A DNA stretch of 64,000 nt from positions 1,071 to 65,070 of the forward strand of contig JAYGED010000241.1 in assembly GCA_046582565.1 (NCBI GenBank), in the 5' to 3' direction. Origin of the DNA: Alphaproteobacteria bacterium. Lineage in GTDB: Bacteria; Pseudomonadota; Alphaproteobacteria; JAAXGF01. Of this stretch, positions 1,630-42,997 are shown piece by piece. How positions within the stretch are numbered: the first letter of the stretch is position 1; every line of letters begins with the position of its first letter. Both the position numbers and the translations under genes were made by a program. The notes below the pieces were generated by a model, which did not search any database, had not been told where the DNA came from, and saw nothing but the letters and a program-made list of their open reading frames with translations.

Positions 1630-2559
1630 ATGAAGACTGAAGGCGGCTGGTTTTCCCGGCTCAAGGCGGGGCTCTCGCGGTCGTCGTCGAAACTCGCCGA
1701 CGGCATCGGCGGAATCTTCACCAAGCGCCGCCTGGACGCCGAAGCCCTTGAGGAGCTCGAAGAACTTCTGATCACCGCCGATCTCGGCGTCGAGACCGCC
1801 GCTTCGCTGACCGCCGAGCTGGCCCGCGACCGCTTCGACAAGGACATTAGCCCTGAGGAGGTGCGCCGCGCCCTGGCCGGCCAGATTGCCGACATCCTCG
1901 AGCCCGTGGCGCGGCCCCTGGCGCTCGATCCGGCACATTCGCCCCATGTGGTGCTGGTGGTCGGCGTCAACGGCACCGGCAAGACGACGACCATCGGCAA
2001 GCTCGCCAAACAGTGGCGCGATGAGGGCCATGGGGTCATGCTCGCCGCCTGCGACACCTTCCGCGCCGCCGCCATCGAGCAGCTTCAGGCCTGGGGCGAG
2101 CGCTCAGGCTGTGCGGTGGTCGCGGCCAAGCCCGGCGCCGACGCCGCCGGCCTCGCCTATGACGCGCTCATTCAGGCGCGCGAGGCGGGCGTGGACCTGC
2201 TGCTCATCGACACCGCCGGGCGGCTGCACAACAAGGCCGAACTCATGGCCGAGCTGGAAAAGATATCGCGGGTTCTCAAGAAGCTCGACGAAGGCGCGCC
2301 CCATGACGTCCTGCTGGTGCTCGACGCCACGGTCGGCCAGAACGCTCACGCCCAGGTCGAGACCTTCCAGCGCCTGGTGGCGGTCAGCAGCCTCGCCGTT
2401 ACCAAGCTCGACGGCACCGCGCGGGGCGGCGTCCTGGTGGCCCTGGCGCAAAAATTCGCCCTCCCGGTGATCGCCGTCGGCGTCGGCGAAGCCATCGAAG
2501 ACCTGCGCCCCTTCGAAGCCCGCCCCTTCGCGGCCGCGCTCATGGGCCTGGAGGATTAG
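1630..2559 (+). CDS. ftsY: signal recognition particle receptor FtsY
   Basis: NG domain with GVNGTGKTTTIGKLA P-loop, DTAGR, TKLDGTARGG motifs; ATG at 1630 preceded by GAAGAGAG RBS (ORF-track start at 1498 overlaps mtaB and is less likely). Confidence 0.88.
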   Translation: MKTEGGWFSRLKAGLSRSSSKLADGIGGIFTKRRLDAEALEELEELLITADLGVETAASLTAELARDRFDKDISPEEVRRALAGQIADILEPVARPLALDPAHSPHVVLVVGVNGTGKTTTIGKLAKQWRDEGHGVMLAACDTFRAAAIEQLQAWGERSGCAVVAAKPGADAAGLAYDALIQAREAGVDLLLIDTAGRLHNKAELMAELEKISRVLKKLDEGAPHDVLLVLDATVGQNAHAQVETFQRLVAVSSLAVTKLDGTARGGVLVALAQKFALPVIAVGVGEAIEDLRPFEARPFAAALMGLED

Positions 2560-2641
2560 GGGGAGTTCGTGTCCAAACGGTTTATCTACTAAGATACCGC
2601 TTGCAGAGAACTTGTTGGATGATGGGCACGGTGTTTTTTAG

Positions 2642-3133
2642 ATGTCGTCACGCCAAAGCAAAAATTTAAGCTGGGAAGAAATCGAGCTTCTTCGGCCTTG
2701 TATCGAAAACCTCCGAGAGTTGGAGCTGGGTAAACGCGCACCAACTACAAGTCTTCAAGTTCACTTTCTTGATGTTTGTAAAGGGAAGGTAGAAGCCTCG
2801 ACCAAGCACGCATTCGCCTATTTGAAATGGCGTCAAAACCCAGTTGATTTGAACCAACTTGTCATGAGCCAGGCTACAAGAGAAGAACTAGGGCAAGGTC
2901 CCAAAGAAGGAGCGAGGGAAATTGAAAGGAAAAAGGCAGAGAGAAACGCTCGCAATTCGGAAAAGCAAAAAAGAGAATTTAAGAAAATAAAGCGAGAGGC
3001 TACGGCGAGAACAACTCAAGATCGGAAGGCAAGTTTAGAGGGCCAGTCATATAAAAGGTTCATTGATGAACCTTTGGAAAGCCGAGAGGAATTCAAAAAA
3101 GATCGAGCAAGCTGGAAAAACTCACACAGCTAA
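2642..3133 (+). CDS. hypothetical highly charged (K/E/R-rich) protein encoded in AT-rich foreign DNA
   Basis: Only long ORF in a ~40-47% GC patch (2560-3165) in a ~65% GC genome; no recognisable domain; weak RBS. Confidence 0.4.
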   Translation: MSSRQSKNLSWEEIELLRPCIENLRELELGKRAPTTSLQVHFLDVCKGKVEASTKHAFAYLKWRQNPVDLNQLVMSQATREELGQGPKEGAREIERKKAERNARNSEKQKREFKKIKREATARTTQDRKASLEGQSYKRFIDEPLESREEFKKDRASWKNSHS

Positions 3134-3165
3134 AAAATAATATTTACCGCCATTATCCTGAAGGA

Positions 3166-3660
3166 TTAGGGGAGCGCCCTCCGGGCGTCCGCCAGCGGCA
3201 AGACCAAGACCAGCGGGTCGCCGGGGGAGGTGAGAAAATCGTTGCTCCGGTAAAAACCGGCGGCGGCTTCATCCAGGGCGTGGACCAGGAGGGCGCGGAT
3301 GCCGGCGATTTCGGCGGCGGCCAAGGATCGTACGATGGCGTCCTTGAGCATACCTTTCGCCAGCCCTCGGCCCTGCCAGCCGCTGTCGACGGCGAGGCGG
3401 GCGATGATCATGACGGGGATTGGGTCGGGCATGTTTCGCCGCACCCTGCCGGGCGCCGCTCGATGGTCAACCGAGCTTGCGGCCAGGCTATAGTAGGCGA
3501 CTACGCGGTCGTTCTCGCACACAACATAAGTCCGCGAAGCCCCGGCGGTCTGGTTTTTGACGGCTCTTTCCTTCAACCAGTCATCGAGCAGCGGCTGGCC
3601 GCAAATAAACTGTGTGTGATCGTTGTCTGCCGATAAGGGTCGCGGCGCTTGAATCGTCAC
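3166..3660 (-). CDS. GNAT-family N-acetyltransferase toxin (TacT/AtaT/KacT-like) of type II TA system
   Basis: 164 aa GNAT fold (RLAVDSGWQGRGLAKGML acetyl-CoA motif) immediately downstream (14 bp) of a DUF1778 RHH antitoxin gene; classic operon order antitoxin-toxin. Confidence 0.8.
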   Translation of the reverse strand: MTIQAPRPLSADNDHTQFICGQPLLDDWLKERAVKNQTAGASRTYVVCENDRVVAYYSLAASSVDHRAAPGRVRRNMPDPIPVMIIARLAVDSGWQGRGLAKGMLKDAIVRSLAAAEIAGIRALLVHALDEAAAGFYRSNDFLTSPGDPLVLVLPLADARRALP

Positions 3661-3674
3661 AAGAGTATCTTGAT

Positions 3675-3968
3675 CTAGTCCCAGGGCGCCGGCGTCGAGA
3701 GCAGTGTCTTGAGCGCCTTTGTCGGCCGGGCCGGAGCATTGAGACAGGCGGTGAATTTTTCGTAAGCCGCGTCGTCCAACAGGAACATCCGTTGATCGAG
3801 CAGGGTATTCACCGCTTCCTTGCGGGCGGACTCCAGCATGAATTCGGTGCGTGACTTGCCCAGACTGGCGGCGGCGCGGTCGATCAGCGCCTTCTGCTCG
3901 GCGGAGGCGCGGAGATTTATGGTCTCTCCCCGGGAAGCCGTTCCCGTTTGGCGCTCGATATCCGTCAT
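3675..3968 (-). CDS. DUF1778-family (TacA-like) antitoxin, ribbon-helix-helix
   Basis: 97 aa; INLRASAEQKALIDRAA...SRTEFMLESAR signature of DUF1778 antitoxins paired with GNAT toxins. Confidence 0.8.
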   Translation of the reverse strand: MTDIERQTGTASRGETINLRASAEQKALIDRAAASLGKSRTEFMLESARKEAVNTLLDQRMFLLDDAAYEKFTACLNAPARPTKALKTLLSTPAPWD

Positions 3969-3990
3969 GGTTCTCTCACAATGTTAGTAA

Positions 3991-4026
3991 TTACGTTGTA
4001 TATACATGACCGTGCGCACATTGTAA
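3991..4026. promoter_or_regulatory. putative TA operator: inverted repeat TTACGTTGT(N18)ACATTGTAA containing palindrome TGTATATACA
   Basis: Seen directly in sequence 25-60 bp upstream of antitoxin start, in divergent promoter region shared with methyltransferase gene. Confidence 0.4.
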
Positions 4027-4100
4027 AGACGTAGGTTGCGGGCCCGGCCCCCTGTTTTATGCTATTAGATGAGAATAATAGGGACGGTGGGGACCGGAAG

Positions 4101-4928
4101 ATGAATACGACAGCCATCAAATCCATGAAGCTCTATTCGCGGGTTGATCGCATTTATGACGATCTGCGGCATGCCGGTATTGGTCCTAACGATCCGCTCA
4201 CCGTCGCCGATCTGTTGCCGTTCGATCAGTATCATTATTTCGGCGCCGAAGCGGTCGATGAGGCGATCCGGGAGCTTGCCGTCAGAGCCGGCCACCGGCT
4301 TCTCGATGTGGGCTCGGGCCTCGGCGGCCCGGCGCGTTATCTGGCCGAGCAGACCGCCTGCCGGGTCACCGCCATCGAGCTGCAGGCCGACCTGAACGAC
4401 GTCGCCAGCTCGCTCACCGCGCGCTGCGACCTGGCCGGCCGCATCGAGCATCTGTGCGGCGATATCCTGACGGCTGCGATCGATCCGGGCGGCTATGATG
4501 CGGCGGTCAGCTGGCTGGCGTTCTACCATATCGCCGATAAGGACCGGCTGTTCGCCCGGCTGCATGACGCGCTCAGGCCCGGCGGTTCGATCTATATCGA
4601 GGATTTTTTCAGCCACGGCGATTTTGCTGACCGTGAGCAGCCCATCCTCTCCGAGGTGGTCTACGCCCAGAGCCTGCCCTCGCGCGACGCCTACATCGGC
4701 CTGCTCGAAGCCGCCGGCTTCAGCGACATCCGTTTCGAGGACATGACCGCCCAATGGATGCCGTTTGTCATCGAGCGCGCGAGCGCCTACCGCGCCCGCC
4801 TGCCTGAGCACCGGGCCCTCCATGGCCGGGATGTAACCGACGCCCTTGATGATTTTTACGACGGCGTCGCCAGCCTGTTTCGCGGCGGCAGCTTCGGCGG
4901 CCTGCGTCTGGTGGCGAAACGGGCGTAG
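4101..4928 (+). CDS. class I SAM-dependent methyltransferase
   Basis: Motif I LLDVGSGLGGPARYLA, post-I acidic residue, motif II/III region; ATG 4101 with GGAAG RBS (ORF-track start 4059 is upstream alternative). Confidence 0.7.
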   Translation: MNTTAIKSMKLYSRVDRIYDDLRHAGIGPNDPLTVADLLPFDQYHYFGAEAVDEAIRELAVRAGHRLLDVGSGLGGPARYLAEQTACRVTAIELQADLNDVASSLTARCDLAGRIEHLCGDILTAAIDPGGYDAAVSWLAFYHIADKDRLFARLHDALRPGGSIYIEDFFSHGDFADREQPILSEVVYAQSLPSRDAYIGLLEAAGFSDIRFEDMTAQWMPFVIERASAYRARLPEHRALHGRDVTDALDDFYDGVASLFRGGSFGGLRLVAKRA

Positions 4929-4990
4929 ATTTTATCGCGGATGGCGCAGGCGCGGCCTGCATCTTATATCCGGGAGCGATGGAAGCGGGG

Positions 4991-5176
4991 TCACTTCAGA
5001 CGCTTTTTACCCCAATCGGTCAGGCCGCGATCAGCCTGCAAGGCGGCCTCGATATGGACGCAGGATGCGTTTGCATCGCGGAATTTCATCAGCTTCTCGA
5101 TCGGAAACTCGACCTTGCCGATGTCCGACCGGTCTCTCAGGCGGTCTTTTTTGGATCCGTGTGTTCTACCAGTCAT
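4991..5176 (-). CDS. small hypothetical protein (61 aa)
   Basis: ATG at 5176 preceded by GGAGAA RBS; no recognised domain. Confidence 0.35.
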   Translation of the reverse strand: MTGRTHGSKKDRLRDRSDIGKVEFPIEKLMKFRDANASCVHIEAALQADRGLTDWGKKRLK

Positions 5177-5263
5177 GGCATTCTCCAATTCATCGGGACC
5201 GACATGTCCCCGACACCCACCAAATTCAGCAAGATCATACCACCGTTCCGTCACCGAGAGAAC

Positions 5264-5310
5264 TGGTGCGCCCGACAGGATTCGAACCTGCGGCCACCAG
5301 ATTAGGAATC
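5264..5310 (-). pseudogene. 3' fragment (anticodon loop to CCA end, 47 nt) of a tRNA-Arg gene; putative att-site direct repeat
   Basis: 39/47 identity to the 3' part of the intact tRNA-Arg(CCT) at 19469-19545 in the same orientation, including identical anticodon loop (CAGATTAGGAATC on + strand), T-loop TTCGAAT and acceptor CGGGCGC-A-CCA; compensatory changes in T-stem; 5' half absent. Confidence 0.7.
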
Positions 5311-5863
5311 ATAACACCGGCCGAGAAAATTTATTATATATCAATAGGTTGGTGTTCATAGTTTGCGTCTAGCAACGCCACAGCAACGGCCCGGCATCGT
5401 TATGCAGCATACCGGCACGTCGAATCACCTACATGTACTACTACCCTTTAGATTCTAATAAGAATGTGCCGTCCACACTGTCCGCGCCGTCCTCAAGCCA
5501 ATGAAAACATTTCCTTAGGCGAAAACGCTTTGCCGTCCGCATGTGTCTGCAACCGTCCGAATTGAGGGCGGTGTACAGCCTAATGTCCGCTTTCGGGGGT
5601 AAAGCAGACCTAATTCACTAGGTGCTGCAATGTCTGCTTATAGCTATAACCGGAAGTTTGTGATGCCGGCGCGGCTCATGGGCTCGTGGGCATCTTACTT
5701 GCTTGGAGGTGGATACACAGTCCACCTCGGCCGCTGCCACCTTGGCGATGGTGCCGTTACGCGAAATACCGGCTTTATCGGCTCCGAAATGCGCGGTGGC
5801 CGCGGACTTGCACACGGGGGCCTACGACCTGGCCCGCGACCTTTGGCGTTGAGCGCGCGCCGT

Positions 5864-7735
5864 TCAGGCGTGGCCGTCGACAGGCTGCTGATAGGCGGCG
5901 AGTTCGTCGATCTCGCGGTGGCAGTGAATGACATGGTCATCCCCCGCCTGACGTGCCGGCGGCGGCTCGCCATCGCAGATGCCGGGCATCATCAGCGGGC
6001 AGCGGGTGCGGAACGGGCAAGCGCTGTCGCGCGGCATGACTCCGGCAAACGCACCGCCACCCTTGGCCGCGTGATCTTCGAGTGCGGTATCGAGCCAGTC
6101 CAGCCGAAGCGCCGGTACCGAGGCAATCAGTAGCGACGTATAGGGATGGTGCGGCGCGGCGAACACCCGTTCGGTGGGGCCGATATCGACCACCCGTCCG
6201 GCGTAAAGCACGGCCACCCGGTCGGCGATGGTCGCCACCGTCGAGAGGTCGTGGGAAATAAACATGTAGGCGACCTGGAATCTCTGGCGCAGGTCGCGCA
6301 TTAAGTCGAGTACCGAAGCAGCGACGACGGTGTCCAGCGACGACAATACCTCGTCGCACAGCACCAGTTCCGGCTTGGCGGCAAAGGCGCGGGCCAGGGA
6401 AAGCCGCTGGCGTTCGCCACCCGACAGCTCGCCGGGATAGCGCCCGGCAAAGTCGGTGTCGAGGCCGACGCTTTCCAGCAGCTCGTCGACCCGGTCGCGG
6501 CGCTCGGCCGCGGTCATATCGAAATAGAGCTCGAGCGGCCGGCCCAGGGACTTTTCCACTAGATGTTCGGGATTGAGCGACAGGTCCGGGCTCTGAAATA
6601 CGATCTGGATTTTTCGTAAAGTGTCGAGCTGGCGGTCGGCAACACTGCCGCGCAGAGTCTCGCCGGAGAATTCAAGCTCGCCGGAGAGGGCCGGATGGAG
6701 GCCGGCGACAACCCGCGCCAGAGTGCTCTTGCCGCAGCCTGACTCGCCGACCACCGCGAGGACTTCCTGGGCCCGGACATCGAGAGTGACGTCCTGGAGA
6801 ACCTGCTGTTCGCGTTTGATGGTTCCAAACAGCGGCGGGCGTTCATACGTCGCACAGACAGATTTGATACGCAGCAGAACGTTGTCGGACTTCGCCTCCG
6901 TCTCCGCCTCCGGCTCGGCCACCGTGACCGGTTTCGCGCCGGTATTGGGCGGCGGCCGGACTGCTGATAGCAGCAGCTTGGTGTAATCGTCCTGGGGATT
7001 GTTGAGAATTTCGTCCGCCGTGCCTTCTTCGACCACGCGGCCGCCGTTCATGACCAATATGCGGTCGGCGACCTGGGCCACCACCGCGAGGTCGTGGGAG
7101 ACGTAGATCGCCGCCATGTGGCGGTCCTGAATGGCGTCCTTGATGGCCTTCAGAACTTCAATCTGGGTGGTAACGTCGAGCGCCGTGGTCGGCTCGTCGA
7201 GGACCAGCAGCTTGGGCCCGCAGCTCATCGCCATGGCCATCATGATGCGCTGCTGCTGGCCGCCGCTGGCCTGGTGCGGGTAACGCTCGACCAGGGCCGG
7301 CGGATCGGGCAGGTCGAGGGTGGTCAGCAGATCGATCACGCGGCGCTCGGCTTCCTCGCCGTCGGAGATGCCGTGAATGACCAGCCCCTCGCCGACCTGC
7401 TCGCCGATCGGGATCGCCGGATTGAGGGAGGCCTGGGCGCTCTGCGCCACGTAGGCGACGTCCTTACCGCGCAACTCGCGGCGCTGGCGAGAGCTGAGCT
7501 TGAGGACATCAACGTCGTCCAGGAAGACGCGGCCGCCGATAATTTGCGTACCGGGCCGCGCATAGCCGAGCGCGCTGAGCGCCACGGTCGTCTTGCCGGC
7601 GCCCGATTCGCCGATCAGCGCGACAACCTCGCGCGGACGGATCTCAAGGCTCACATTGTCGGCGATGGTGATAACGGCGCCGGTCGGCGTGCGTGCCTCG
7701 ACGACCAACTCCTCGATCCGCAGCAATGCGGTCAC
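5864..7735 (-). CDS. ABC transporter ATP-binding protein, fused double NBD (DppD/DppF-like, peptide/opine/nickel family)
   Basis: Two Walker A motifs ([18 protein letters not shown]), two LSGGQ signatures, C-terminal Cys cluster typical of Opp/Dpp ATPases; GTG start at 7735 overlapping upstream permease stop (GTGA). Confidence 0.8.
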
Positions 7736-8625
7736 TGGGTCAGCTCTTCCGAGATGCTGCGGCCAGACTGGCTCGACATCCAATCGACCAGAAGGTTGAC
7801 GCCGATGGTCAGGGTGCCGATGGCGACGGCCGGCAACACCGGGGCCATGGAGCCGAGCAGAATACCCGACAGGTTCTCCCGGACCATGCTGCCCCAATCG
7901 GCTGCGGGCGGCTGAATGCCGAGCCCGAGGAAGCTGAGGCTGGAAAGAAACAGAATGGCGAAGGTCAGGCGAAGGCCGAATTCCACCGCCAGGGGGCGGA
8001 GCGTATTGGGCAGAATTTCGCGCACCAGCACCGAGGTCAGCGATTCGCCCCGGGCCCGCGCCACCTCGACATAGTCGAGGACCACGACGTTCATGGCCAC
8101 GGCGCGGGCAATGCGGGCAATGCGCGGTGCGCTGACCACGGCGATGGTACCGATCAAGACATAGATATCGGTCCCCAGCGCGACGATGATGATCAGCGCC
8201 ATCATGATCGGCGGGAAGGAAATGAAGACATCGATCAACCAGGTGATGAAGTCATCGGTGCGGCCGCGGATCTCAGCGGCGGCGAAACCGACGATCATGC
8301 CCATGGCAAACCCGATGAGATTTGAAATTAAAGCAATGCCGATGGTCAGGTGAGCGCCGTGGAGCATGCGCGACAGCACGTCGCGGCCCAGGGCGTCACT
8401 GCCCATGAAGCTAATTTCATCGCCGGGCGGCGAGTAGGCCTTCCAGACCAGTATTTCGCCCGGATCGTGAGGCGCGATGAAAGGTCCGATAATCGCCACC
8501 AAAATCCCGAACCCGACGATGATGAGCCCGATCCAGCCGTTTAAATTGAGTTTGGGGCGCTCCCGCTTGCTGCGCTTGCGCGGCGCGGCGACAGTTTTGC
8601 CGCTGGTGCCGACCATCTCGGTCAT
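7732..8625 (-). CDS. ABC transporter permease (DppC/OppC family)
   Basis: BPD_transp_1 permease topology and EAA-like loop; start overlaps upstream permease stop (ATGA). Confidence 0.8.
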   Translation of the reverse strand: MTEMVGTSGKTVAAPRKRSKRERPKLNLNGWIGLIIVGFGILVAIIGPFIAPHDPGEILVWKAYSPPGDEISFMGSDALGRDVLSRMLHGAHLTIGIALISNLIGFAMGMIVGFAAAEIRGRTDDFITWLIDVFISFPPIMMALIIIVALGTDIYVLIGTIAVVSAPRIARIARAVAMNVVVLDYVEVARARGESLTSVLVREILPNTLRPLAVEFGLRLTFAILFLSSLSFLGLGIQPPAADWGSMVRENLSGILLGSMAPVLPAVAIGTLTIGVNLLVDWMSSQSGRSISEELTQ

Positions 8626-9665
8626 GAGGTGTATCTTATGCGCGGGTTGCTCATGATCGCGATCATGTCGGCCATGATGTTGAGCACGATGTAAGTGACG
8701 CAGAAAATCAACCCGGTGATTTGCACCAACGGCAAATCACGCATGCCGATGGCGTCGACCATCAGGCGGCCAAGTCCGGGATAGGTGAAGACCACCTCGA
8801 TGACGACCACGCCGCTGATCAGATAGCCGAGATTGAGCGCGATCACGTTGACAATGGGCGCCAGGGCGTTGGGCGCGGCGTGGCGCAGAATGATGCGGCT
8901 TTTGGAGGCGCCCTTGAGCAGCGCCATTTCAACGTAGGGTGAGCGCAGAACATCGAGAATGGTAGCCCGCGTCATGCGTATCATATGCGACAGCATGGTC
9001 AGCATCAGGGTCGCCACGGGCAGGGCCAAGGCGTGCATGGCGCCGCCGAAATCGCTGAAGTCGACCCGTTTCAGCATCATCGGGAACCAGCGCATCTCCA
9101 CCGAGAAAATGATGATCAGAATGATGGCGATCAGAAAATCCGGTATGGAAACCATGAACAAGGTGACGGCATTGACAACGCGGTCGAACAGGCTGTCGGG
9201 GAAGGCGGCGGATAACAGGCCAAGCGCGATGGCCAGTGGAACAGCAATTACCGCCGTTACGATGGCCAGATAAAGGGTATTGAGAACGCGTGGCGCGACA
9301 AGGCCGTCGACCGGGAAACCATTTGCCAACGAAACACCCAGGTCGCCCGATAGAATGCGGCCAAGCCAATCGAAATACCTTGTCAGCATGGGTCGGTCGA
9401 GACCCATCTGCGCCCGCAGGGCGGCCTTCAATTCCTCGGTCGCAGATTGACCGAGAACCGCCGAGGCCACGTCACCGGGCAGGATTTCCGTGCCCGCGAA
9501 GATCAGTGCGGTGATTGCCCACAGGGTTAGAAGGCTAAGCAGAAGCCGTCGCGCCAGGAACTTCGCCAACAAACCTCGGTGCCTCCTCCAGATGCGGAAA
9601 ACGGGCCGGTTGTCGCCGGACCACAATTGATTGACGGAGTATATCCGATCGCCGTGCCGCTTCAT
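8622..9665 (-). CDS. ABC transporter permease (DppB/OppB family)
   Basis: Typical N-terminal LLRRLLL...PGD motif of DppB; true start may be internal (N-terminus of ORF-track product is non-canonical). Confidence 0.75.
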   Translation of the reverse strand: MKRHGDRIYSVNQLWSGDNRPVFRIWRRHRGLLAKFLARRLLLSLLTLWAITALIFAGTEILPGDVASAVLGQSATEELKAALRAQMGLDRPMLTRYFDWLGRILSGDLGVSLANGFPVDGLVAPRVLNTLYLAIVTAVIAVPLAIALGLLSAAFPDSLFDRVVNAVTLFMVSIPDFLIAIILIIIFSVEMRWFPMMLKRVDFSDFGGAMHALALPVATLMLTMLSHMIRMTRATILDVLRSPYVEMALLKGASKSRIILRHAAPNALAPIVNVIALNLGYLISGVVVIEVVFTYPGLGRLMVDAIGMRDLPLVQITGLIFCVTYIVLNIMADMIAIMSNPRIRYTS

Positions 9666-9796
9666 AATGGACTTTCGCGATTTGCAATCCCATACTAATC
9701 TCGATCCATCAGAGGAAGACTTGAGACGAACTTGAGTTTGATGCTGGCGCGGATAATAATGCTGGCAAGCAAATGAACATTAAGGGAGCAGATCCA

Positions 9797-11389
9797 ATGA
9801 AAAAGAAGGACGTGTTGTGTCGGGAGTTCTTGCGCGGCAAGGTGTCGCGCCGTGATTTCAATGTCGGATTGTTGAATATGGGCCTGAGCGTGGCCGCCGC
9901 CGGCGCGCTGGTCAGCCAGACCATCGCCGAGTCTCAGGCCGCGACGCCTAAACGTGGTGGTCGCCTGCGCTTCGCTTCGGCGAGTTCGGGGCCCTCCGGC
10001 ACCATCGATCCGGCCAAGGTGACGAGCGGCGTGGACATCACCCGCGGCGTTTTACTCTACGACCGTTTCGTCGACCGCGACGTCGATGGCAATTTGGTGC
10101 CGGTATTGGCCGATTCGTGGGAAACCAACGATGCGGTCGATGAATGGGTCATTCATTTGCGCCAGGGCGTCGAGTTCCACAACGGCAAGACCATGACTTC
10201 CGCCGATGTCGTCTATTCGCTTCAGCGCGTCCTGGACCCGGATACGGGATCGCCGGCCCAGCCGCTGATCAGCGATATCGCCGAAGTTTCGGCGGATGGC
10301 AAATACACGGTGAGGCTGAAGCTCAGCCAGCCCAACGCCGACCTCATGTACGCCCTCAACGAGTATCACGTGGCGATCGTGCCCGAAGGTCAGGACGATT
10401 ACACGGGCACGCCCGCCGGTACCGGACCGTGGAAGGTGAAAACCTACGAGCCGGGCATCGGCTCGTTGTTTGTGCGCAACGAAAACTACTTCATCACCGA
10501 CCGGCCCTACATCGACGAGATCGAGATCTTCGGTATTCCCGATTCCACCGCGCGCATCAACGCCCTGCTGTCGGGCGAGACCGATATCATCGCCGGCGTG
10601 GACCCGCAGCTCATCGACCTGATCAACGATGCTCCTGATTCGGAGTTACTGACCATCGCCGGTTCGGCCCATCCAACCTATCCGATGCGGGCCGATATGG
10701 AGCCCTATTCCAACAACGACGTTCGCCTGGCGATCAAGAGTTCGATCGACCGCCAGAAGTTCGTCGACCTGGCGTTCAATGGCTTGGCCTCACCGGGCCG
10801 CGACCATCCGGTGCCGCAGCACGATCCCATGCATTGCGATGAAATTCCGATTCCGCAGTTCGACCCGGACAAGGCAAAGTTCCATCTCAAGAAGGCCGGG
10901 CACGAGAACACGGTGTTCGAGATCAGCGGCTCGGACGCCAACTTCGGCGGCCTCAACGCCACCCTGATTCTCGCCGACATGGCCAACGACGCGGGCGTCA
11001 ACGTCAAGGTCAAGCGGGTGCCGACCGACGGCTACTGGAGCGACGTGTGGCTGAAGGCGCCGTGGTGCGGCTCGTCCTGGTACGGCCGGCCGACGGCGGC
11101 GTTGGTCATGGGAATCACCCATTTCGCGGATGCGAAGTGGAACGAGAGCCACTGGTATCGCGAGGATTTCGATGCGTTGTTGGTCGAGTCCAACCGCACG
11201 GCCGATCCGGTCAAGCGCAAGGAGATCCTGTGCGAGGCCCAGTGGATGATCCACAACGAAGGCTCGACCGTGATTCCGGTCTTCAGCAACTGGATCGACG
11301 CCAACAGCACCCGCGTCAAGGACCTGGTGCCCCATCCCGACGGCTTCACGGGCTGGATGCAATGGGACAGCGTCTGGCTCGACAGCTAG
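9797..11389 (+). CDS. ABC transporter substrate-binding protein, family 5 (peptide/opine/nickel), with twin-arginine signal
   Basis: SRRDFNVGLL Tat motif followed by hydrophobic stretch; SBP_bac_5 fold length (~530 aa); ATG 9797 with GGAG RBS. Confidence 0.8.
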   Translation: MKKKDVLCREFLRGKVSRRDFNVGLLNMGLSVAAAGALVSQTIAESQAATPKRGGRLRFASASSGPSGTIDPAKVTSGVDITRGVLLYDRFVDRDVDGNLVPVLADSWETNDAVDEWVIHLRQGVEFHNGKTMTSADVVYSLQRVLDPDTGSPAQPLISDIAEVSADGKYTVRLKLSQPNADLMYALNEYHVAIVPEGQDDYTGTPAGTGPWKVKTYEPGIGSLFVRNENYFITDRPYIDEIEIFGIPDSTARINALLSGETDIIAGVDPQLIDLINDAPDSELLTIAGSAHPTYPMRADMEPYSNNDVRLAIKSSIDRQKFVDLAFNGLASPGRDHPVPQHDPMHCDEIPIPQFDPDKAKFHLKKAGHENTVFEISGSDANFGGLNATLILADMANDAGVNVKVKRVPTDGYWSDVWLKAPWCGSSWYGRPTAALVMGITHFADAKWNESHWYREDFDALLVESNRTADPVKRKEILCEAQWMIHNEGSTVIPVFSNWIDANSTRVKDLVPHPDGFTGWMQWDSVWLDS

Positions 11390-11526
11390 ACGCTGACAAC
11401 AGCGCGCACGACCTGGGCCGGCCCTGCGACAACGGGGCCGGCCCTTTGCGTTTGGCGGGAGCACCGGTCTGTACGAGTGCAAGATTGGGCGATTGAACGA
11501 AGTTTTCTCCAGGAAAGGACACAGCC

Positions 11527-12777
11527 ATGACCGGTGTCGGTTTGACCACGGGACCGTTCGATGCCGCCGCCTTCGGCGAGATCACTCTGCCGTTTAGCCG
11601 TGACGAATATCTCGGCCGGATCGCCAAGCTGCGCGGCGCCATGCGCGACGAGGGCATCGACTTGCTGTGGGTGACCACGCCCGAGGCGGTGTGCTGGCTG
11701 CATGGCTTCGCCTCCAGTTGGTACAAGGGCAATGCGCCGATGCGTTATCCCCAGTGCTACGGCACGGCGATCTGGGCTCATGACGAGCGCTTCATCTACT
11801 TCGACAACCCGACAGAGGAGCCGGTGGTGGCGCGGACTTCGATCAGTGAGGACAACCGCTGGCTGCCCGACCGTGAGGCCGAACCCAATCTGCGCTTTAT
11901 CTTGGACGAGCTCGAGCGCGAGGGCTGGCTCGGCGGCACCGTCGGCATGGAATTCTGGAGCTACGTGCCCAACCGGGCCATCAGCACCATGTTCGAGGGT
12001 GGGTTCCTGTCTCATGGTGGTCGGGTGGTCGACGCCAGCGCCATGGTGCGCCGCGCCCGCCGGGTCAAGTCGACGCAAGAACTCGTCTATGTGGAAAAGG
12101 CCATGGAGATTTGCGACATCGGCCATCAGACAATTGTGGAAAACCTCAGGCCGGGCATCACCGAGCTTGAGCTGTTTGGCCAGGTCATGGCGGCGATGAT
12201 GGCGGCTGGCGGCGAGTTTCCGGCGCTGATCCCGATCTTCAATACCGCGCCGGTGGTTGACGGCCATCCCCAGTCGAACGGACACGCTCTGGCGGGGCGC
12301 AAGGTGATCGAGGCGGGCGAGTTGCTGACCACCGATCTGTGTGGTGTTTTCAACCGCTATCATGCCAACGCCGAACGGGGCTACTACGTGGGCGACAACC
12401 CGCCGGCGGCATTGGTCGAGCGCTATAGGCTGGCGGCCGGAGTGTTTGACGTCATCGCCAGCGATGTCAAAGCCGGTATGACCGTGCGCGAGGTTAACAC
12501 TCGGCTACGGCGCTATTACGAAGACGTCGGCATTTGGACTGAGAGCGAGGGCTGGGCGCTGGGCTACGAACTCGGCCTCAGCTTTCCGCCCGACTGGGTT
12601 GGCGATTTTTACTTCCACCTGGGCGACGACAAGTATCTCGACCGGGTATTCGAGGAGAATATGGTGACCAACTTCGAAAGCCTGTTCAACACCGCCCTGA
12701 TCGATACCCTGATCTACGGCAAGGACGGGACGCGAGTGTTGTCGAAAACGCCACGCAAACTGATCGCCGTAGGTTGA
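11527..12777 (+). CDS. M24-family metallopeptidase/amidohydrolase (creatinase/prolidase N-domain + M24 catalytic domain)
   Basis: 416 aa; creatinase-N-like N-terminus and pita-bread M24 domain with conserved metal-ligand region (HGxGxxxHE-type); paralog of 12826-14088. Confidence 0.7.
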   Translation: MTGVGLTTGPFDAAAFGEITLPFSRDEYLGRIAKLRGAMRDEGIDLLWVTTPEAVCWLHGFASSWYKGNAPMRYPQCYGTAIWAHDERFIYFDNPTEEPVVARTSISEDNRWLPDREAEPNLRFILDELEREGWLGGTVGMEFWSYVPNRAISTMFEGGFLSHGGRVVDASAMVRRARRVKSTQELVYVEKAMEICDIGHQTIVENLRPGITELELFGQVMAAMMAAGGEFPALIPIFNTAPVVDGHPQSNGHALAGRKVIEAGELLTTDLCGVFNRYHANAERGYYVGDNPPAALVERYRLAAGVFDVIASDVKAGMTVREVNTRLRRYYEDVGIWTESEGWALGYELGLSFPPDWVGDFYFHLGDDKYLDRVFEENMVTNFESLFNTALIDTLIYGKDGTRVLSKTPRKLIAVG

Positions 12778-12825
12778 AGCACGCGATCAGCGCCCTGATT
12801 GAGGTTCTGAGAGGAGCGCCCGTTC

Positions 12826-14088
12826 TCAGCCGACGCCCTGCAGCTCGAGCGGAGTCTTGGACAGGATCCGGGTGGCGTCCGGGCCGTAGACGCAGGTGTC
12901 GACCAGCCAGGTATTGAACATGCTTTCGAAGTTGGTCACCATATTCTCCTCGAACACGCGATCCAGCCCCTGCTCGTCACGGACGTGGAAGTAGAAATCG
13001 CCGACCCAGTCGGGCGGCAGACTGAGGCCGAGCTCGTAGCCCAGCCCCCAGCCCGGCTTGTCCCACAGGCCGACGTCCTCGTAGTAGCGGCGCAGGATGG
13101 CGATGACCTGGCGCACGGTCATGCCCGCCTTGACCTCGTTGGCGATGACGTCGAAAACACCGGCCGCGGTGCGGACGTTTTCCATCATTGCCTTGGGCGG
13201 GTCGCCGACCACGTATCCGCGCTGCACATTGGCGTGGTAGCGATAGTAAACCCCGGCGATGTCGATCTTCAGGAAATCGCCGCTTTCGATGACTTTGCGG
13301 CCCATCATGGCGTGGCCGGCGGCAATCGGCCGGCCGTCGCGGATCGGCGACGAGGTGAAACTGTGGACCAGGGCGGGAGACTCACCGCCCGCCGCCATCA
13401 TCGCCCGCAAGGTCTCGCCATAAAGCTCGAGCTCGGTCATGCCGGGCCGGGCCAGGTCGCGGACCGTCGCATGGCCGATATCGGCGATCTCGGCGGCCTT
13501 CTCGATGTGAGCGATCTCGGCCGGCGACTTGACCAGCCGGAGGCGGCGCACCAGGGCGCTGGCGTCGACCATCCGGCACCCTTCGGCGAGAAAGGCGCCT
13601 TCCAGCATGGTGCTGACCGCCCGGTTCGGCAGATAGCTCCAATGCTCGAGCCCGACAGTACCGCCGAGCCATCCCTTGGCCCTCAACTCGTCCATGATGA
13701 AGGCCAGGCAGGGGCCGGCGTCGCGCGACGGGAAGAAGCGGTTGTCGGTTGACACCGAGGTCTTGCCGAGCACCGGCAACTCGGTCGGGTTGTCGAAGTG
13801 AATGAAGTCGTCGGAATCGACGCGGATCGCCGTGCCGTAGAGTTGCGGATAGCGCATGGGGCTGCTGGCCTTGTACCAGCTCGCCACATAGCCATGGAGA
13901 TAGGCGACATGGTCCGGTGCCGTGACATACAGCAGGTCGATGTTGTGCGCCGCCATGCCTGCCCGCAGCCTGCGGATGCGCTCGAGGTACTCTTCGCGCG
14001 GGAAGGCGAGATCGCGGTACTCGGCGGGCCATTCCTCGACAGCGCCAGGCGTCAATCCGGTATAGGCCTCGGTATCTACGGTCGTCAT
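12826..14088 (-). CDS. M24-family metallopeptidase/amidohydrolase, convergent paralog of 11527-12777
   Basis: 420 aa, ~55-60% identical to neighbour over full length (e.g. VFEENMVTNFES, LSKTP..L..VG* shared C-terminus); GGGGGAGG RBS. Confidence 0.7.
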   Translation of the reverse strand: MTTVDTEAYTGLTPGAVEEWPAEYRDLAFPREEYLERIRRLRAGMAAHNIDLLYVTAPDHVAYLHGYVASWYKASSPMRYPQLYGTAIRVDSDDFIHFDNPTELPVLGKTSVSTDNRFFPSRDAGPCLAFIMDELRAKGWLGGTVGLEHWSYLPNRAVSTMLEGAFLAEGCRMVDASALVRRLRLVKSPAEIAHIEKAAEIADIGHATVRDLARPGMTELELYGETLRAMMAAGGESPALVHSFTSSPIRDGRPIAAGHAMMGRKVIESGDFLKIDIAGVYYRYHANVQRGYVVGDPPKAMMENVRTAAGVFDVIANEVKAGMTVRQVIAILRRYYEDVGLWDKPGWGLGYELGLSLPPDWVGDFYFHVRDEQGLDRVFEENMVTNFESMFNTWLVDTCVYGPDATRILSKTPLELQGVG

Positions 14089-14198
14089 GTCGAAATGCCT
14101 CCCCCTTGGTCCACGCCACCTTGGCGCTTCGCGCGCCAGCGAAGGCGAGCACTATAGCACCGGGTTTTTCTAGCGAACGGAGCTGATCGGGCACTGCC

Positions 14199-15152
14199 CT
14201 AGAGGAGCTTGCCGATCTTGTTCCAGGCCTGGGCAATGGCGACAAGGCCCGCATCGCGTTCCTCTGACAAGGCCGAGAACGAGCGACCATCCGCCATATC
14301 ATCGCTACTCTTAATCAACTCGGCGCGGAGTTCCTCGGTCAATTCCGGGGCCTTAAGCCGGGTCCATGGAAATTTGAGGGCGGGGCCGAACTGATCGAGA
14401 CAGTAGGCCATGCCGCCTTCGCCGCCGCCTATATGGTAGGTCATGCACGGCCCGGCGAAGGCCCACCGGGGCCCAGGCCCGTTGACCATGGCGATATCGA
14501 TCTGTTCAGGCGTCGCTTCTCCGTTGTCGATCATGTGGAGCGCCTCGCGCCAGACCGCTTCCTGAAGGCGGGTGGCGACAAAGCCCGGCACCTCCTTGTC
14601 CATGATCAGCGGCGCCTTGCCGGTCAGGCGGTAGAAATCAGCGGCCCATTCGAGCGCCGCCCTCTCGGTCTTTGCGCCGCCGACCATTTCGACCAGCGGC
14701 AGTAAATAGGGCGGGTTGAACGGATGTGCCACGATTGTTCGCCCAGGCGTCGAACAATCTTTCTGTATGTCCGTCATGGAGAGGCCGGATGTACTCGACG
14801 CGATGACGACGTCATCGGGAACCAGCCGGCCCAGCTTCTCGTAGAGCGCCTGCTTTAGCGCGAGGTCCTCCGGTACGCACTCCTGGACGAATTCAGCATC
14901 GCGGACCGCCTCTTCCAAATCGCTGGTGCAGCGCAACCGGTCCAGCCCGGCGCCCTCGGCCAGCCCGATCTTTGACAGACATTGCCAAGCCGTATCGAGC
15001 AGGCTCATTAATTGCGCTTCTTCCGCCGGGTCATGGAGATAACAGGTCACGTCATAGCCCTTGGCGAGAAAATGCGCCGACCAGCCGCCGCCGATTGGAC
15101 CCGCGCCAATCGTTGTCACCTGGCGCACCTCATGAATGATCTTGCGTGCCAT
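14199..15152 (-). CDS. 3-hydroxyacyl-CoA dehydrogenase family protein, L-carnitine dehydrogenase-like (NAD+)
   Basis: N-terminal GAGPIGGGWSAHFLAKGYDV Rossmann motif and C-terminal QFGPALKFPWTRLKAPELT...GRS segment resemble stand-alone LcdH-type enzymes rather than FadB-type; 317 aa. Confidence 0.6.
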   Translation of the reverse strand: MARKIIHEVRQVTTIGAGPIGGGWSAHFLAKGYDVTCYLHDPAEEAQLMSLLDTAWQCLSKIGLAEGAGLDRLRCTSDLEEAVRDAEFVQECVPEDLALKQALYEKLGRLVPDDVVIASSTSGLSMTDIQKDCSTPGRTIVAHPFNPPYLLPLVEMVGGAKTERAALEWAADFYRLTGKAPLIMDKEVPGFVATRLQEAVWREALHMIDNGEATPEQIDIAMVNGPGPRWAFAGPCMTYHIGGGEGGMAYCLDQFGPALKFPWTRLKAPELTEELRAELIKSSDDMADGRSFSALSEERDAGLVAIAQAWNKIGKLL

Positions 15153-15168
15153 TGTTGTCTTTCTCCCG

Positions 15169-15981
15169 TTACCGGCCTTTGAAATTTGCCGGACGTTTTT
15201 CCATGAACGCGCGGACGCCTTCCACCGCGTCTTCGGATTTCAGCATCTTGCGATAAATTGGCAGATCGCCTGTGCGCATCTCGTGGAACGCGCCCTCGAG
15301 GCTGATTGCCTCAATGGTGCGCAACACTTCCTTGACGGTCTGCACGGCGAGAGGCGCCGATTGAGCCAGCTGATCCGCCCATTCCCTCGCCTTTTCCATA
15401 AGCTTATCGGCGGGCACGATCACATTCACCAAACCATAGTGGGCGGCCTCCTCTGCCGTCATGCGCCGGCCCAGAAACAGCATCTCCACGGCGATGTTAT
15501 AGGGAATACGGCGGGGCAGCCTTTGCAGCGCCCCCGCATCGGGCACGATGCCGAGCGGCATTTCCGGCAGGGCGAATTCGACATGCTCGGCGGCGACGAT
15601 GAGGTCGCAGGCCATGGCGATCTCAAATCCCCCGCCGATGGTCAAGCCGTTCAGTGCTGCAATAACCGGTTTGTTCAGAACCCAGTTTTCGGTCAATCCG
15701 GCAAAGCCGCCGAAAATATTTTCCTCGCCTTCCCACCAGTCATCCAATTGTTGATCGCCGCTGTCCAGCGCCTTCAAATCCCAGCCCGCCGAAAAGACTC
15801 GATCCCCCGCGCCGGTGATGATCCCGACCCGAAGATCGTTATCTTCATGGAGGAGACGGAACGCCTCCCCCAGCTTGGCGCTGGTGGCGTTATCGATGGC
15901 GTTCACCTTCGGCCGGTCGATGGTGATCTCAAGAACCCGGCCGCGCTTTTCGATTTTTATGTCTTCGTGCGCTTGCGTCAT
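15169..15981 (-). CDS. enoyl-CoA hydratase/isomerase family, CaiD-like (carnitinyl-CoA dehydratase/crotonobetainyl-CoA hydratase-like)
   Basis: Strong collinear similarity to E. coli CaiD: LEITIDRPKVNAID, LRVGIITGAGDRVFSAGWDLKA, GGFAGLTE, KPVIAALNG, GGGFEIA, FALPE..LGIVPD, SEDAVEGVRAFMEKR, C-terminal FKGR. Confidence 0.75.
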   Translation of the reverse strand: MTQAHEDIKIEKRGRVLEITIDRPKVNAIDNATSAKLGEAFRLLHEDNDLRVGIITGAGDRVFSAGWDLKALDSGDQQLDDWWEGEENIFGGFAGLTENWVLNKPVIAALNGLTIGGGFEIAMACDLIVAAEHVEFALPEMPLGIVPDAGALQRLPRRIPYNIAVEMLFLGRRMTAEEAAHYGLVNVIVPADKLMEKAREWADQLAQSAPLAVQTVKEVLRTIEAISLEGAFHEMRTGDLPIYRKMLKSEDAVEGVRAFMEKRPANFKGR

Positions 15982-16055
15982 GGCTATCTCTCTATGTTCA
16001 TACTGCGAATGCCCTCAGATGGGTATAATACGCATGAACGTGAAAAGCATGAGGC

Positions 16056-17222
16056 ATGGCGATGGATTATCAGTTGACCGAAGAACAACGAATGCTCGTC
16101 GACTCTCTCAGCACCTTCATCGAGCAGGAGCTTCTCCCCTATGAGGACGAGACCGACAAGGCCGGCGAAGTCCCGCCCGAGCTCGGGGAGCGGATCAAGT
16201 CCAAGGCCATCGAGATGGGTTTCTTTGCAGCAAACATGCCGGAGACCGTCGGCGGCGGCGGTCTCGATTATACCAGCCTGGCGCTGATGGAGAGGGAATT
16301 CGGCAAGACCACCTATGGCCTGCACGGCTTCGTTCATCGGCCTTCAGAAATCCTCATGGCTTGTGAAGGCGAGCAGGTCGAGCGTTACCTGCTGCCCTGC
16401 GTGCGCGGCGAGAAGATGGAATTCTTCGCCCTGACCGAGCCCGGTGCCGGTTCGGACATCATGTCGATGCAGACGCGGGCGGTGCGTGACGGCGGCGATT
16501 GGATTATCAACGGCTCGAAGCATTTCATATCGGCGCCCGTGGTGGCTGATTTTGCCATTCTGTTTGCCTGCACAGGCGTGGACGATACGCCGAGGGGAGA
16601 GCGCAAGCGCGTCACCGCCTTTCTGGTGGATGCGGGAGAGCCCGGCTTCACCATCGAGCGTGGCCCGCGCTCCGCAGCACAACGAGCCTATCCCACATTC
16701 CAGCTTTCGTTTGACGGCCTGCGCGTGCCGGACAGCCAAATTCTCGGCACGGAAGGCGCCGGCCTGGAACTGGCTGACAAATGGCTGCGCATGGGCCGGC
16801 TCTGGGTCGCCGCCGCTTGCTGCGGCAGGGCCGAGCGGTTGCTGCGCCTGGCGACCGAATGGGCGGCCAGCCGCAAGCAATTCGGCAAGCCCATAGGCAG
16901 GTTCCAGGGAACCGCCTTTAAGCTCGCCGACATGGCGACCGAATTGCGCGCCGCCGATCTGCTGGTGCTCGACGCCGCCCGCAAGGCGGATCTGGGCATC
17001 ATGGAGCCTAACGATGTCGCCATGGCCAAATTGTTCGCCTCGGAAATGGTCGGGCGGGTTGCCGATAATGCGGTGCAAATCTATGGCGGCATGGGCCTCA
17101 TGGAGGACCTGCCTATCGAGCGCTTGTGGCGCGATTCGCGCCTCGACCGCATCTGGGACGGCACCTCCGAGATCCAACGCCATATTATTTCGCGCTCCTT
17201 GTTGCGGCCGCTCGGCGCCTGA
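16056..17222 (+). CDS. acyl-CoA dehydrogenase
   Basis: ACAD N/M/C domains, FALTEPGAGSD motif, catalytic-base region near C-terminus. Confidence 0.85.
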   Translation: MAMDYQLTEEQRMLVDSLSTFIEQELLPYEDETDKAGEVPPELGERIKSKAIEMGFFAANMPETVGGGGLDYTSLALMEREFGKTTYGLHGFVHRPSEILMACEGEQVERYLLPCVRGEKMEFFALTEPGAGSDIMSMQTRAVRDGGDWIINGSKHFISAPVVADFAILFACTGVDDTPRGERKRVTAFLVDAGEPGFTIERGPRSAAQRAYPTFQLSFDGLRVPDSQILGTEGAGLELADKWLRMGRLWVAAACCGRAERLLRLATEWAASRKQFGKPIGRFQGTAFKLADMATELRAADLLVLDAARKADLGIMEPNDVAMAKLFASEMVGRVADNAVQIYGGMGLMEDLPIERLWRDSRLDRIWDGTSEIQRHIISRSLLRPLGA

Positions 17223-17230
17223 TTACGGCC

Positions 17231-19324: not shown

Positions 19325-19468
19325 GGCCGGCAATCGGGTTCTTTGAAGAACGGAATCAGCAAGAATTACAGAGTAACATGCCGTAGCAGCCCGAAGCTAG
19401 AAACGGCCGAGTCTTCTAGTAATCAACTGATATATAATAATAAATAGTATTAAATCGTAGAAGGGAGT

Positions 19469-19545
19469 TGGCGCGCCCGGCGGGATTCGAACCCACGACC
19501 CCCAGATTAGGAATCTGGTGCTCTATCCTACTGAGCTACGGGCGC
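19469..19545 (-). tRNA. tRNA-Arg (anticodon CCT)
   Basis: Reverse complement GCGCCCGTAGCTCAGTAGGATAGAGCACCAGATTCCTAATCTGGGGGTCGTGGGTTCGAATCCCGCCGGGCGCGCCA folds as cloverleaf: acceptor GCGCCCG/CGGGCGC, anticodon loop TTCCTAA, T-loop TTCGAAT, encoded CCA. Confidence 0.9.
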
Positions 19546-19733: not shown

Positions 19734-20261
19734 TCAGAAAATTGGGTCGATGGGGAAGGCGTAGTTGAGCAGGATGGAATCAAGCGCCGGGCTGCTCGCA
19801 TAGACGCCGCCGTTCGAGATATGCGAATAGGTCACGCCGAGCCGGGCTTCGTTGTCGAAGATATAGGCGAAGGTCAGCGCGCCGTGGATTTCGAAGGTGC
19901 CGCCGAGGTCCTTGCCGTCGCCCGGCGTGAAGGCGCCGAGGCCGCCCTCGGGGCGGATGACAAGTGAGTCGCTGAAGAAAAAATCGCCATAGATCCCGGC
20001 ATAGCCAAAAACCCCGCCCTTGCCGGTGATGGTCAGCCCAATGAGCGGCCCGACGCCGCTGAACCAGGTGCCGTTGCCGAAGATCGTCCGGGCCCAGGAA
20101 TGTTCGATATTCGCCTCGACGGTGGGCTCGTCGAAATCGTCGATATCGGAATGGCCCACATTGAGGACGATGAGGTTGCGGTCCCTGGCCACGGCGGGGG
20201 AGAGGGCGGCGAAGATCAGGATAATCGCGCCAAACGCCGCCGTGACTTTATCAATCACCAT
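19734..20261 (-). CDS. outer-membrane acyloxyacyl hydrolase / lipid A 3-O-deacylase PagL-like protein
   Basis: Signal peptide, ~175 aa beta-barrel-like composition, C-terminal SHISNGG (His-x-Ser-Asn) motif characteristic of PagL family. Confidence 0.55.
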   Translation of the reverse strand: MVIDKVTAAFGAIILIFAALSPAVARDRNLIVLNVGHSDIDDFDEPTVEANIEHSWARTIFGNGTWFSGVGPLIGLTITGKGGVFGYAGIYGDFFFSDSLVIRPEGGLGAFTPGDGKDLGGTFEIHGALTFAYIFDNEARLGVTYSHISNGGVYASSPALDSILLNYAFPIDPIF

Positions 20262-20301
20262 GTCTCAAGGCCTCGTCATTGAATCTGTAAAAAAAGGGGC
20301 G

Positions 20302-20835: not shown

Positions 20836-20946
20836 ATGCCTAAACCCTTCAACCCCCTGCCTTGCGCTGCAGAGTGTAAGTAAAATCCACGCCCGCGCAA
20901 CCGGCCATGGTCTTCTTACCGCGCGCACCGTGATATAGTCGGAGCG

Positions 20947-42583: not shown

Positions 42584-42997
42584 ATGAGTTCTGTGATTCA
42601 AAGCTTTTGGGCCGGATATCCCATCATGATGCTGCACTCCTCGGTGACGCTCGCCATGCTGCTGGCGGCGGTTTTCGTCTATATAAAGATCACCCCCTAT
42701 GACGAGATAAAGCTTATCCGGGACGGCAATACGGCTGCCGCGATTTCCTTGGCGGGGGCGATTGTTGGCCTAGCACTTCCCCTATCCCTCAGCATGGCGA
42801 GCAGTATCAGCGTTTGGGAAGTGCTGATCTGGGGTCCGGTTACCCTGTTTCTGCAATTAATCGCCTACCGCTTTACAGACATTCTCCTCAAAGATCTGCC
42901 CAAGCGTATAGAGAATGGTGAGACAGGGCCTGCTGTCTTACTCGTCTCCATCAAACTCGGCGTCGCGATGATTAACGCCGCGGCCGTCACCGGCTGA
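42584..42997 (+). CDS. DUF350-family small inner-membrane protein
   Basis: Two hydrophobic repeats characteristic of DUF350; lower-GC (~48%) segment. Confidence 0.55.
   Translation: MSSVIQSFWAGYPIMMLHSSVTLAMLLAAVFVYIKITPYDEIKLIRDGNTAAAISLAGAIVGLALPLSLSMASSISVWEVLIWGPVTLFLQLIAYRFTDILLKDLPKRIENGETGPAVLLVSIKLGVAMINAAAVTG

Follow-up and report, generated by a model that had tools for sequence, protein, structure and literature searches.

In an uncultivated marine alphaproteobacterium, the interval between ftsY and a truncated tRNA-Arg (2560-5263 of the 64,000-nucleotide (nt) stretch of contig JAYGED010000241.1, hereafter the window) is probably, at odds of roughly two in three, a row of several independent features and not one genomic island. 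These are a foreign insert that carries a single gene with a DUF413 domain, a standard TacAT toxin-antitoxin (TA) pair, a methyltransferase and a 61-residue protein (orf61) of host-like composition, and a tRNA fragment that belongs to another segment. The original prediction, made from the letters alone, had taken the whole interval for a remnant of horizontally acquired DNA. All the features that it listed are there: the drop in G+C content (GC), the open reading frames (ORFs), the TA pair with its palindromic operator, the methyltransferase, the small ORF and the tRNA fragment. A horizontal origin stands for the low-GC stretch, but does not extend to a single island reaching from ftsY to the tRNA fragment, as the foreign composition ends at 3156, at a repeat. 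The patch is thus not to be annotated as one island, nor as a defence locus.

The 594-bp insert after ftsY

The base composition of the interval changes abruptly at its left end. The signal recognition particle receptor gene ftsY (1630-2559, forward strand; Pfam SRP54, 5.6e-68) closes a conserved dapF-mtaB-ftsY block, and GC in 300-nt windows falls from 0.65-0.70 upstream to 0.42-0.46 across 2551-3150. No 600-nt window in the 64 kb has a lower GC than the one that begins at 2551 (0.44, against a mean of 0.63 with a standard deviation of 0.042). DNA of foreign composition occupies 2563-3156 only: 594 bp with a GC of 0.44, read here on the forward strand and present in a single copy in the window. 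GC at third codon positions (GC3) was used to separate base composition from amino-acid bias. Over the 51 long ORFs of the window it averages 0.773 (standard deviation 0.083, median 0.79), and the lowest value, 0.415, belongs to the DUF413 gene inside the insert (2642-3133, forward strand). From mtaB to 19324, every annotated gene except this one and orf61 (0.66) lies at 0.72-0.87; ftsY stands at 0.87, tacT at 0.77, tacA and the methyltransferase at 0.78, and the genes of 5864-19324 at 0.72-0.86. The composition of tacT, tacA and the methyltransferase is therefore that of the host, as is, less clearly, that of orf61. The non-coding flanks of the DUF413 gene are low in GC as well (0.46 at 2560-2641 and 0.31 at 3134-3165). 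Horizontal acquisition of the low-GC stretch after ftsY is supported.

Both composition boundaries coincide exactly with the two copies of a direct repeat. The left copy, CCTGGAGGATTAGGGG, lies at 2547-2562 and runs on to 2565 as ...GGGGGAG; the right copy, CCTGAAGGATTAGGGG, lies at 3157-3172. The repeat measures 16 nt, or 18-19 nt if a 1-nt indel is allowed (...GGGGGAG against ...GGGG-AG), and with up to two mismatches allowed, chance alone would give 0.04 matches per window. Its content is informative about the target. In the left copy ftsY ends as CTG GAG GAT TAG, with its stop TAG at 2557-2559 inside the repeat, and the reverse strand retains a remnant of the end of tacT, CTCCCC(C)TAA. The right copy holds the tacT stop TAA (the complement of 3166-3168) together with a relic of the ftsY end, CTG AAG GAT TAG. 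Both copies carry the last codons of ftsY and, on the other strand, those of tacT (CTC CCC TAA), and it follows that the duplicated sequence was a junction where two convergent stop codons overlapped. Insertion with duplication would be the simplest reading of the repeat and the gene ends taken together.

On this reading, ftsY and tacT would originally have been convergent, with stop codons that overlapped (TTAG; ...CTG GAG GAT TAG GGG AG...). A recent insertion of 594 bp from a donor of lower GC would have landed on these overlapping stops, and would have duplicated 16-19 bp of the junction in such a way that intact ends were regenerated for both genes. How could the duplication have arisen? 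It may be a target-site duplication, or it may be the core sequence common to both sites in an attB x attP exchange, in which case the rest of a larger element would have been lost later. The insert resembles both classes of element in being foreign DNA with a direct repeat of the target junction, 16-19 bp long, on either side, and differs from them in comprising just 594 bp and one gene and in having neither transposase nor integrase; its duplication is long beside that of a classical transposon. The only terminal inverted repeats found in the insert are a weak 12-nt pair at the two ends of the ORF, and the insert ends fold no better than shuffled sequence. Reuse by the insert of an integrase site in tRNA-Arg was considered and rejected: the anticodon-loop core of the tRNA shares just 7 nt (GATTAGG) with the repeat, and there are no significant extra copies. 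What is new here is a small single-gene insert of 594 bp with a clear duplication signature, carrying a member of an uncharacterised branch of DUF413/MaoP proteins. A duplication of 16-19 bp that spared two overlapping gene ends makes it a clean and datable acquisition of one gene.

A short sequence at the left edge of the insert may mark the transferred unit. The 9-mer TTCGTGTCC lies at 2567-2575 on the forward strand, at -76 relative to the DUF413 gene. It recurs in the locus of the closest homologue (L003) at -161, at the same edge of that locus's own low-GC DNA, whose GC is below that of its neighbour; it does not occur in the 400 nt that precede each of 34 other family genes. This distribution suggests a common transferred unit, of which the 9-mer may be a conserved end or upstream element. 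The scan for terminators found none between ftsY and the DUF413 gene, and read-through transcription from ftsY into the latter is therefore possible.

The site was also followed in the same population and in relatives. At least 35 contigs from many marine metagenomes encode identical FtsY, TacA or methyltransferase; each has the gene order of the window and is 99.5-99.9% identical to it. One of them (L012) was examined as a variant junction and set aside, the apparent difference being a scaffold gap (a run of N). Further away, a scan with FtsY recovered 80 alphaproteobacterial genomes at 62-77% identity, the nearest being metagenome-assembled genomes of Kiloniellaceae/Kiloniellales (77%). The order dapF-(mtaB)-ftsY is kept in the 80 relatives, with mtaB not detected in some. 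Downstream of ftsY, where the original prediction had proposed that genomes be compared, none of the 80 has any gene of the 2560-5263 interval, and no synteny is shared. The drop in GC after ftsY, from 0.67 to 0.44 here, is far larger than in any of them. The ftsY flank is a synteny break, and the relatives are too distant to tell which of the genes of host composition are ancestral.

The DUF413/MaoP-domain protein and its family

The insert's gene encodes a lysine-, glutamate- and arginine-rich protein of 163 residues that had been described as an orphan. It does belong to a family. Pfam PF04219 (DUF413) covers residues 8-65 (25.7 bits, E-value 1.2e-5), NCBIfam PRK11027 models match weakly, and an hhalign comparison of the family profile with Escherichia coli MaoP (NC_000913.3, 3948086-3948424) aligns residues 6-65 with 24-83 of MaoP at 98.4% probability (E-value 7.6e-15). 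A word-indexed search found just one 99% copy and one homologue (P0002), identical at 43-51% and conserved in the N-terminal domain and a C-terminal motif. An exhaustive HMMER search begun from that alignment raised the family to 268 clusters at E <= 1e-3, of which 35 reach E <= 1e-10 and many are full-length; PF04219 matches all 43 of the 43 aligned members. The members are rare metagenomic singletons. The remote-homology search that the original prediction had called for thus turned this protein into a relative of MaoP, but gave no Pfam, NCBIfam or PHROG match for the 61-residue protein; structure prediction divided in a similar way, with a confident AlphaFold2 model for the DUF413 protein (predicted local distance difference test (pLDDT) 87), albeit one without structural neighbours, and a poor model for orf61 (pLDDT 59).

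Three parts can be distinguished in the protein: the DUF413 core at about 6-65, a long charged helix at 87-134, which is modelled at a pLDDT above 90, and a conserved C-terminal motif at 138-159 (KRFIDEPLESREEFKKDRASWK). The linker between core and motif is variable across the family, and charged or of low complexity. The motif has the consensus [YF]xRFxxEP[LW]G[ST]R[ED][DA][FW]K[KR]D and no matching Pfam model. Some family members have a DksA/TraR zinc finger inserted before it, and it also follows zinc ribbons of the GRF/Topo type or a DksA/TraR finger in other proteins, some of which lack the DUF413 domain (P0126, and a protein at 1498-1854 of L129). In these arrangements it behaves as an independent, modular unit. 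Further carriers of the motif after such zinc ribbons or fingers are P0011, P0112 and L126. A fragment resembling the RNA polymerase beta' subunit is fused in frame to the C-terminal half of a family protein in L120 (5-886); this fusion is probably a chimeric assembly.

Several family loci with identifiable neighbours look like mobile elements. The gene of the next-closest homologue (P0003, 182 residues; L159, 598-3164) overlaps the start of a gene for a 673-residue UvrD-like helicase in an operon-like arrangement, with RepB-primase-like and HTH_17 (excisionase-type) genes nearby, a context that suggests a mobile element. Elsewhere family genes lie near a resolvase and a PHROG protein (L113), near RadC (L095) or downstream of a DNA methylase (L123). 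Eight soil-metagenome loci (L094, L100, L103, L105, L107, L111, L112 and L124) share a conserved motif, cTTGTCa/t...N...GTTGATAgcat, some 40-60 nt ahead of the family gene. This motif resembles a promoter and is found neither in the window nor in L003. For the insert's own gene, a phage or plasmid origin finds no trace: phage and plasmid collections gave no tblastn match, and there is no viral contig and no PHROG match.

To our knowledge, MaoP is the sole DUF413 protein to have been studied. MaoP (YifE, UPF0438) is the trans-acting half of the MaoP/maoS system of the E. coli Ori macrodomain, where, together with maoS, a 17-bp cis site beside its gene, it constrains DNA mobility; its occurrence has been described as limited to Enterobacteria with Dam, SeqA, MukBEF and MatP (PMC5023128). 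The protein of the insert shares with MaoP a homologous core of about 60 residues, and both are small helical proteins without a solved structure. The differences are considerable: 163 residues here against 112, a departure from the single-domain architecture of about 110 residues; a long charged helix and a conserved C-terminal motif added to the core; a Kiloniellales-like alphaproteobacterial host in place of Enterobacteria; and a gene that is a foreign insert, whereas maoP is a core gene. What is shown here is a rare but more widely distributed DUF413 branch of different architecture, beyond Enterobacteria.

What might such a protein do? By homology with MaoP it would act in trans on DNA or the nucleoid, and its C-terminal peptide would dock onto a partner; we infer both points. 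A more daring version would make the DUF413 core and the C-terminal peptide an unrecognised family borne by mobile elements, whose tail docks on a core machine of the host (RNA polymerase, replisome or ribosome), and which appears here as a minimal one-gene cassette of 594 bp that inserts at overlapping convergent stops and duplicates 16-19 bp. This is decidedly doubtful. If it were true, the protein could help foreign DNA to establish itself or could remodel the nucleoid. The portability of the C-terminal motif and the occasional mobile-element neighbours provide, in any case, new handles on what DUF413 binds.

A number of observations weigh against the reading of the low-GC stretch as an inserted, transferable DUF413 unit. 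All contigs of the same population that extend across the junction contain the insert with the same repeat, so that no unoccupied allele was seen, and the predicted empty junction (CCTGGAGGATTAGGGGAGCGCC) has no match in the metagenome contigs. With the nearest FtsY only 77% identical, the ancestral state is deduced from the repeat alone. Neither a recombinase nor a transposase is encoded in the insert, and for a transposon 16-19 bp would be a long duplication. Upstream of the DUF413 gene there is no clear promoter and no clear Shine-Dalgarno sequence, the scan for promoters and terminators giving results at chance level. At other family loci no convincing flanking repeat comparable to that of the window was found, and most family genes have a GC at or slightly below that of their flanks, so that the family is not obviously mobile everywhere. 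As to the protein itself, the PF04219 score is barely above the cut-off (25.7 against 25 bits), and the model has no structural neighbours, solved or viral, beyond coiled coils. Near the DUF413 gene there is no match to maoS (CTAATACTCCGCGCCAT) within three mismatches, although a diverged site would be unrecognisable by sequence; the sole match in the window, at 42794, is at chance level.

The tRNA-Arg fragment, the methyltransferase and orf61

The tRNA fragment had been taken for the outer end of the patch. In the window ARAGORN and Rfam report a single tRNA, an intact tRNA-Arg(CCT) at 19469-19545 on the reverse strand (Rfam tRNA, 71.4 bits). The fragment, at 5257-5310 on the same strand, duplicates the 3' half of this tRNA, running from the anticodon loop to 6 nt past the CCA, and forms a 54-nt direct repeat with 19462-19515 (81% identical). 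The two copies share an identical 14-nt core in the anticodon loop, CCAGATTAGGAATC, and the acceptor strand of the fragment would pair with the 5' half of the intact tRNA-Arg. Read in this way, the fragment is the far end of a segment of 14.2 kb, the partner of the intact tRNA-Arg with which it brackets 5311-19461, and not a boundary of the 2560-5263 patch.

The content of 5311-19461 is metabolic only: an Opp-type ATP-binding cassette (ABC) transporter, two M24 peptidases, a 3-hydroxyacyl-CoA dehydrogenase, an enoyl-CoA hydratase, an acyl-CoA dehydrogenase and an ADP-forming acyl-CoA synthetase, with the transporter and an M24 peptidase encoded at 5864-12777. As in tRNA-bounded genomic islands, a copy of the 3' half of a tRNA lies 14.2 kb away from the intact gene and in the same orientation. 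Unlike them, the bounded segment has no integrase, its GC3 is that of the host, and it lies outside the patch first reported. It may be an old metabolic island. A 20-nt inverted repeat (85%) lies just inside its ends, at 5331-5350 and 19421-19440. Within it, two convergent Creatinase_N/Peptidase_M24 paralogues (11527-12777, forward, and 12826-14088, reverse) form a long imperfect inverted repeat whose arms are 70-79% complementary and at their closest 48 nt apart.

The methyltransferase (4101-4928, forward strand; longest ORF from 4059) is a class I enzyme dependent on S-adenosylmethionine (SAM), with matches to Methyltransf_25/11/23 and a resemblance to CMAS. It has no equivalog-level match and none to a DNA-methylase family; by its domain matches it is a generic SAM enzyme, probably of the small-molecule type. 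A role as a defence gene was considered and dropped, the PADLOC match ('mad2') covering the generic SAM-binding region only. The gene for orf61 follows on the reverse strand (4991-5176); a GGAGA stands five nt ahead of the ATG. It had been suggested as a possible additional component of the island. More than 243 homologues are 70-90% identical to it, nearly all of them 60-61 residues long, and in different genomes they precede argG, a short-chain dehydrogenase/reductase (SDR) gene or a CMAS-type methyltransferase gene. Being strongly conserved and found in unrelated genomic contexts, orf61 is not island cargo. Its own AlphaFold2 model is unreliable and too low in confidence for a structure search, and Pfam, NCBIfam, PHROG and PADLOC hold no match for it. 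Marine Alphaproteobacteria carry the family in varied contexts (L133-L140), and the motif FPIEKLMKFRDAxASCVHIEAA is invariant in it or nearly so. A conserved pairing of orf61 with the methyltransferase was examined and rejected: the CMAS-type partner of some homologues, a protein of 413 residues, is just 28% identical to the window's enzyme, over the SAM-binding region.

Could the whole of 2560-5263 be one decayed island after all, integrated at tRNA-Arg, with the charged DUF413 protein, TacAT, the methyltransferase and the small ORF as its cargo and the tRNA fragment as its outer end? The fragment is indeed present (5257-5310), TA modules are typical accessory genes, none of the interval's genes lies downstream of ftsY in the 80 relatives, and the intergenic stretches 3969-4100 and 5177-5863 are lower in GC than the genes. 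Such an island would nevertheless have to explain why foreign composition is confined to 2563-3156, a stretch bounded by a repeat of its own, while the GC3 of tacT, tacA and the methyltransferase, at 0.77-0.78, sits next to the median of 0.79. It would also lack a second end: a single fragment is seen, with no tRNA-like or att-like repeat at the ftsY side, and the fragment's partner is 14.2 kb off on the opposite side. Domains of integrases, transposases or recombinases are absent from the ORFs scanned at 2560-5263 and 12826-19333, and orf61 is widely conserved in unrelated contexts. A single island is therefore improbable, and the reading as independent features is retained.

The TacAT pair beside the insert

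On the far side of the insert, the TA pair proposed in the original prediction is borne out by Pfam and by matches to solved structures. The toxin gene tacT (3166-3660, reverse strand) starts at a GTG and encodes a GNAT protein of 164 residues of the TacT/AtaT/KacT type. Besides the Pfam GNAT domain, residues 3-159 match 7ak7_A (E-value 3.2e-48), and 15 further TacT/AtaT/KacT chains are matched, among them 5fvj, 7ak8, 6ajm and 5zgn, so that the structures of TacT3, TacT, TacT2, AtaT and KacT are all matched over the full length. The catalytic tyrosine is kept, 'GFY' being aligned with 'EFF' of the crystallised protein. The antitoxin gene tacA (3675-3968, same strand) lies 14 nt upstream of the toxin start and encodes a ribbon-helix-helix (RHH)/DUF1778 protein of 97 residues (Pfam TacA1, 7e-23; 7ak7_C, 3.9e-19). 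Operator-like palindromes occupy its promoter region at 3978-4024, 10-56 nt upstream of tacA: ACAATGT (3978-3984) and ACATTGT (4018-4024) flank the 10-nt palindrome TGTATATACA (3997-4006), and together form a putative operator. In public metagenome gene calls TacT appears as a fragment of 88 residues from an internal ATG, which is an annotation artefact because the 164-residue ORF from the GTG at 3660 matches solved TacT from residue 3.

TacT acetylates charged tRNA and so arrests translation, and TacA neutralises TacT and represses the operon at a palindromic operator. From what is known of the family, the TacT and TacA of the window would do the same. Compared with the TacAT, AtaRT and KacAT systems, the pair has the full-length matches to solved TacT3/TacA3 (7ak7), TacT (5fvj), AtaT (6ajm) and KacT (5zgn), an antitoxin gene that precedes the toxin gene across a 14-nt gap, the promoter palindromes and the catalytic tyrosine; nothing notable sets it apart. 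Its sequence and layout mark it as a standard type II TacAT module.

The position of the DUF413 gene, with 32 nt between its stop codon and that of tacT and the arrangement fixed across the population, raises the idea of a third component of TacAT, an addiction cargo or a defence effector; the original prediction had voiced a similar one for both the charged protein and the small ORF. This is very unlikely. The two genes are convergent and not co-oriented, and the DUF413 gene would have arrived by a separate insertion. TacAT is a neighbour at none of about 40 family loci. PADLOC has no match for the DUF413 protein, nor for TacT or orf61, and no evidence connects the DUF413 gene or orf61 with the TA pair or any known defence system. 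Hardly credible is the view that the low GC is a by-product of a native gene rich in lysine, glutamate and arginine, and the flanking repeat a coincidence: first and second codon positions are indeed depressed (GC1 0.51, GC2 0.40), but GC3 is 0.415 where the annotated neighbours have 0.72-0.87 and orf61 0.66, the non-coding flanks are low too (0.46 and 0.31), a repeat expected 0.04 times per window sits exactly at both boundaries, and all 80 relatives lack the gene at this site.

Outside the interval, the Rfam scan of 1-22000 found nothing besides the tRNA. The lowest GC3 of a long ORF beyond 2560-5263, and beyond the overlapping-frame ORFs listed beside it, belongs to 43019-43912 on the forward strand (GC3 0.60, GC 0.55). 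Directly past the intact tRNA-Arg lie two tandem genes for PagL-like lipid A 3-O-deacylases (19734-20964, reverse strand).

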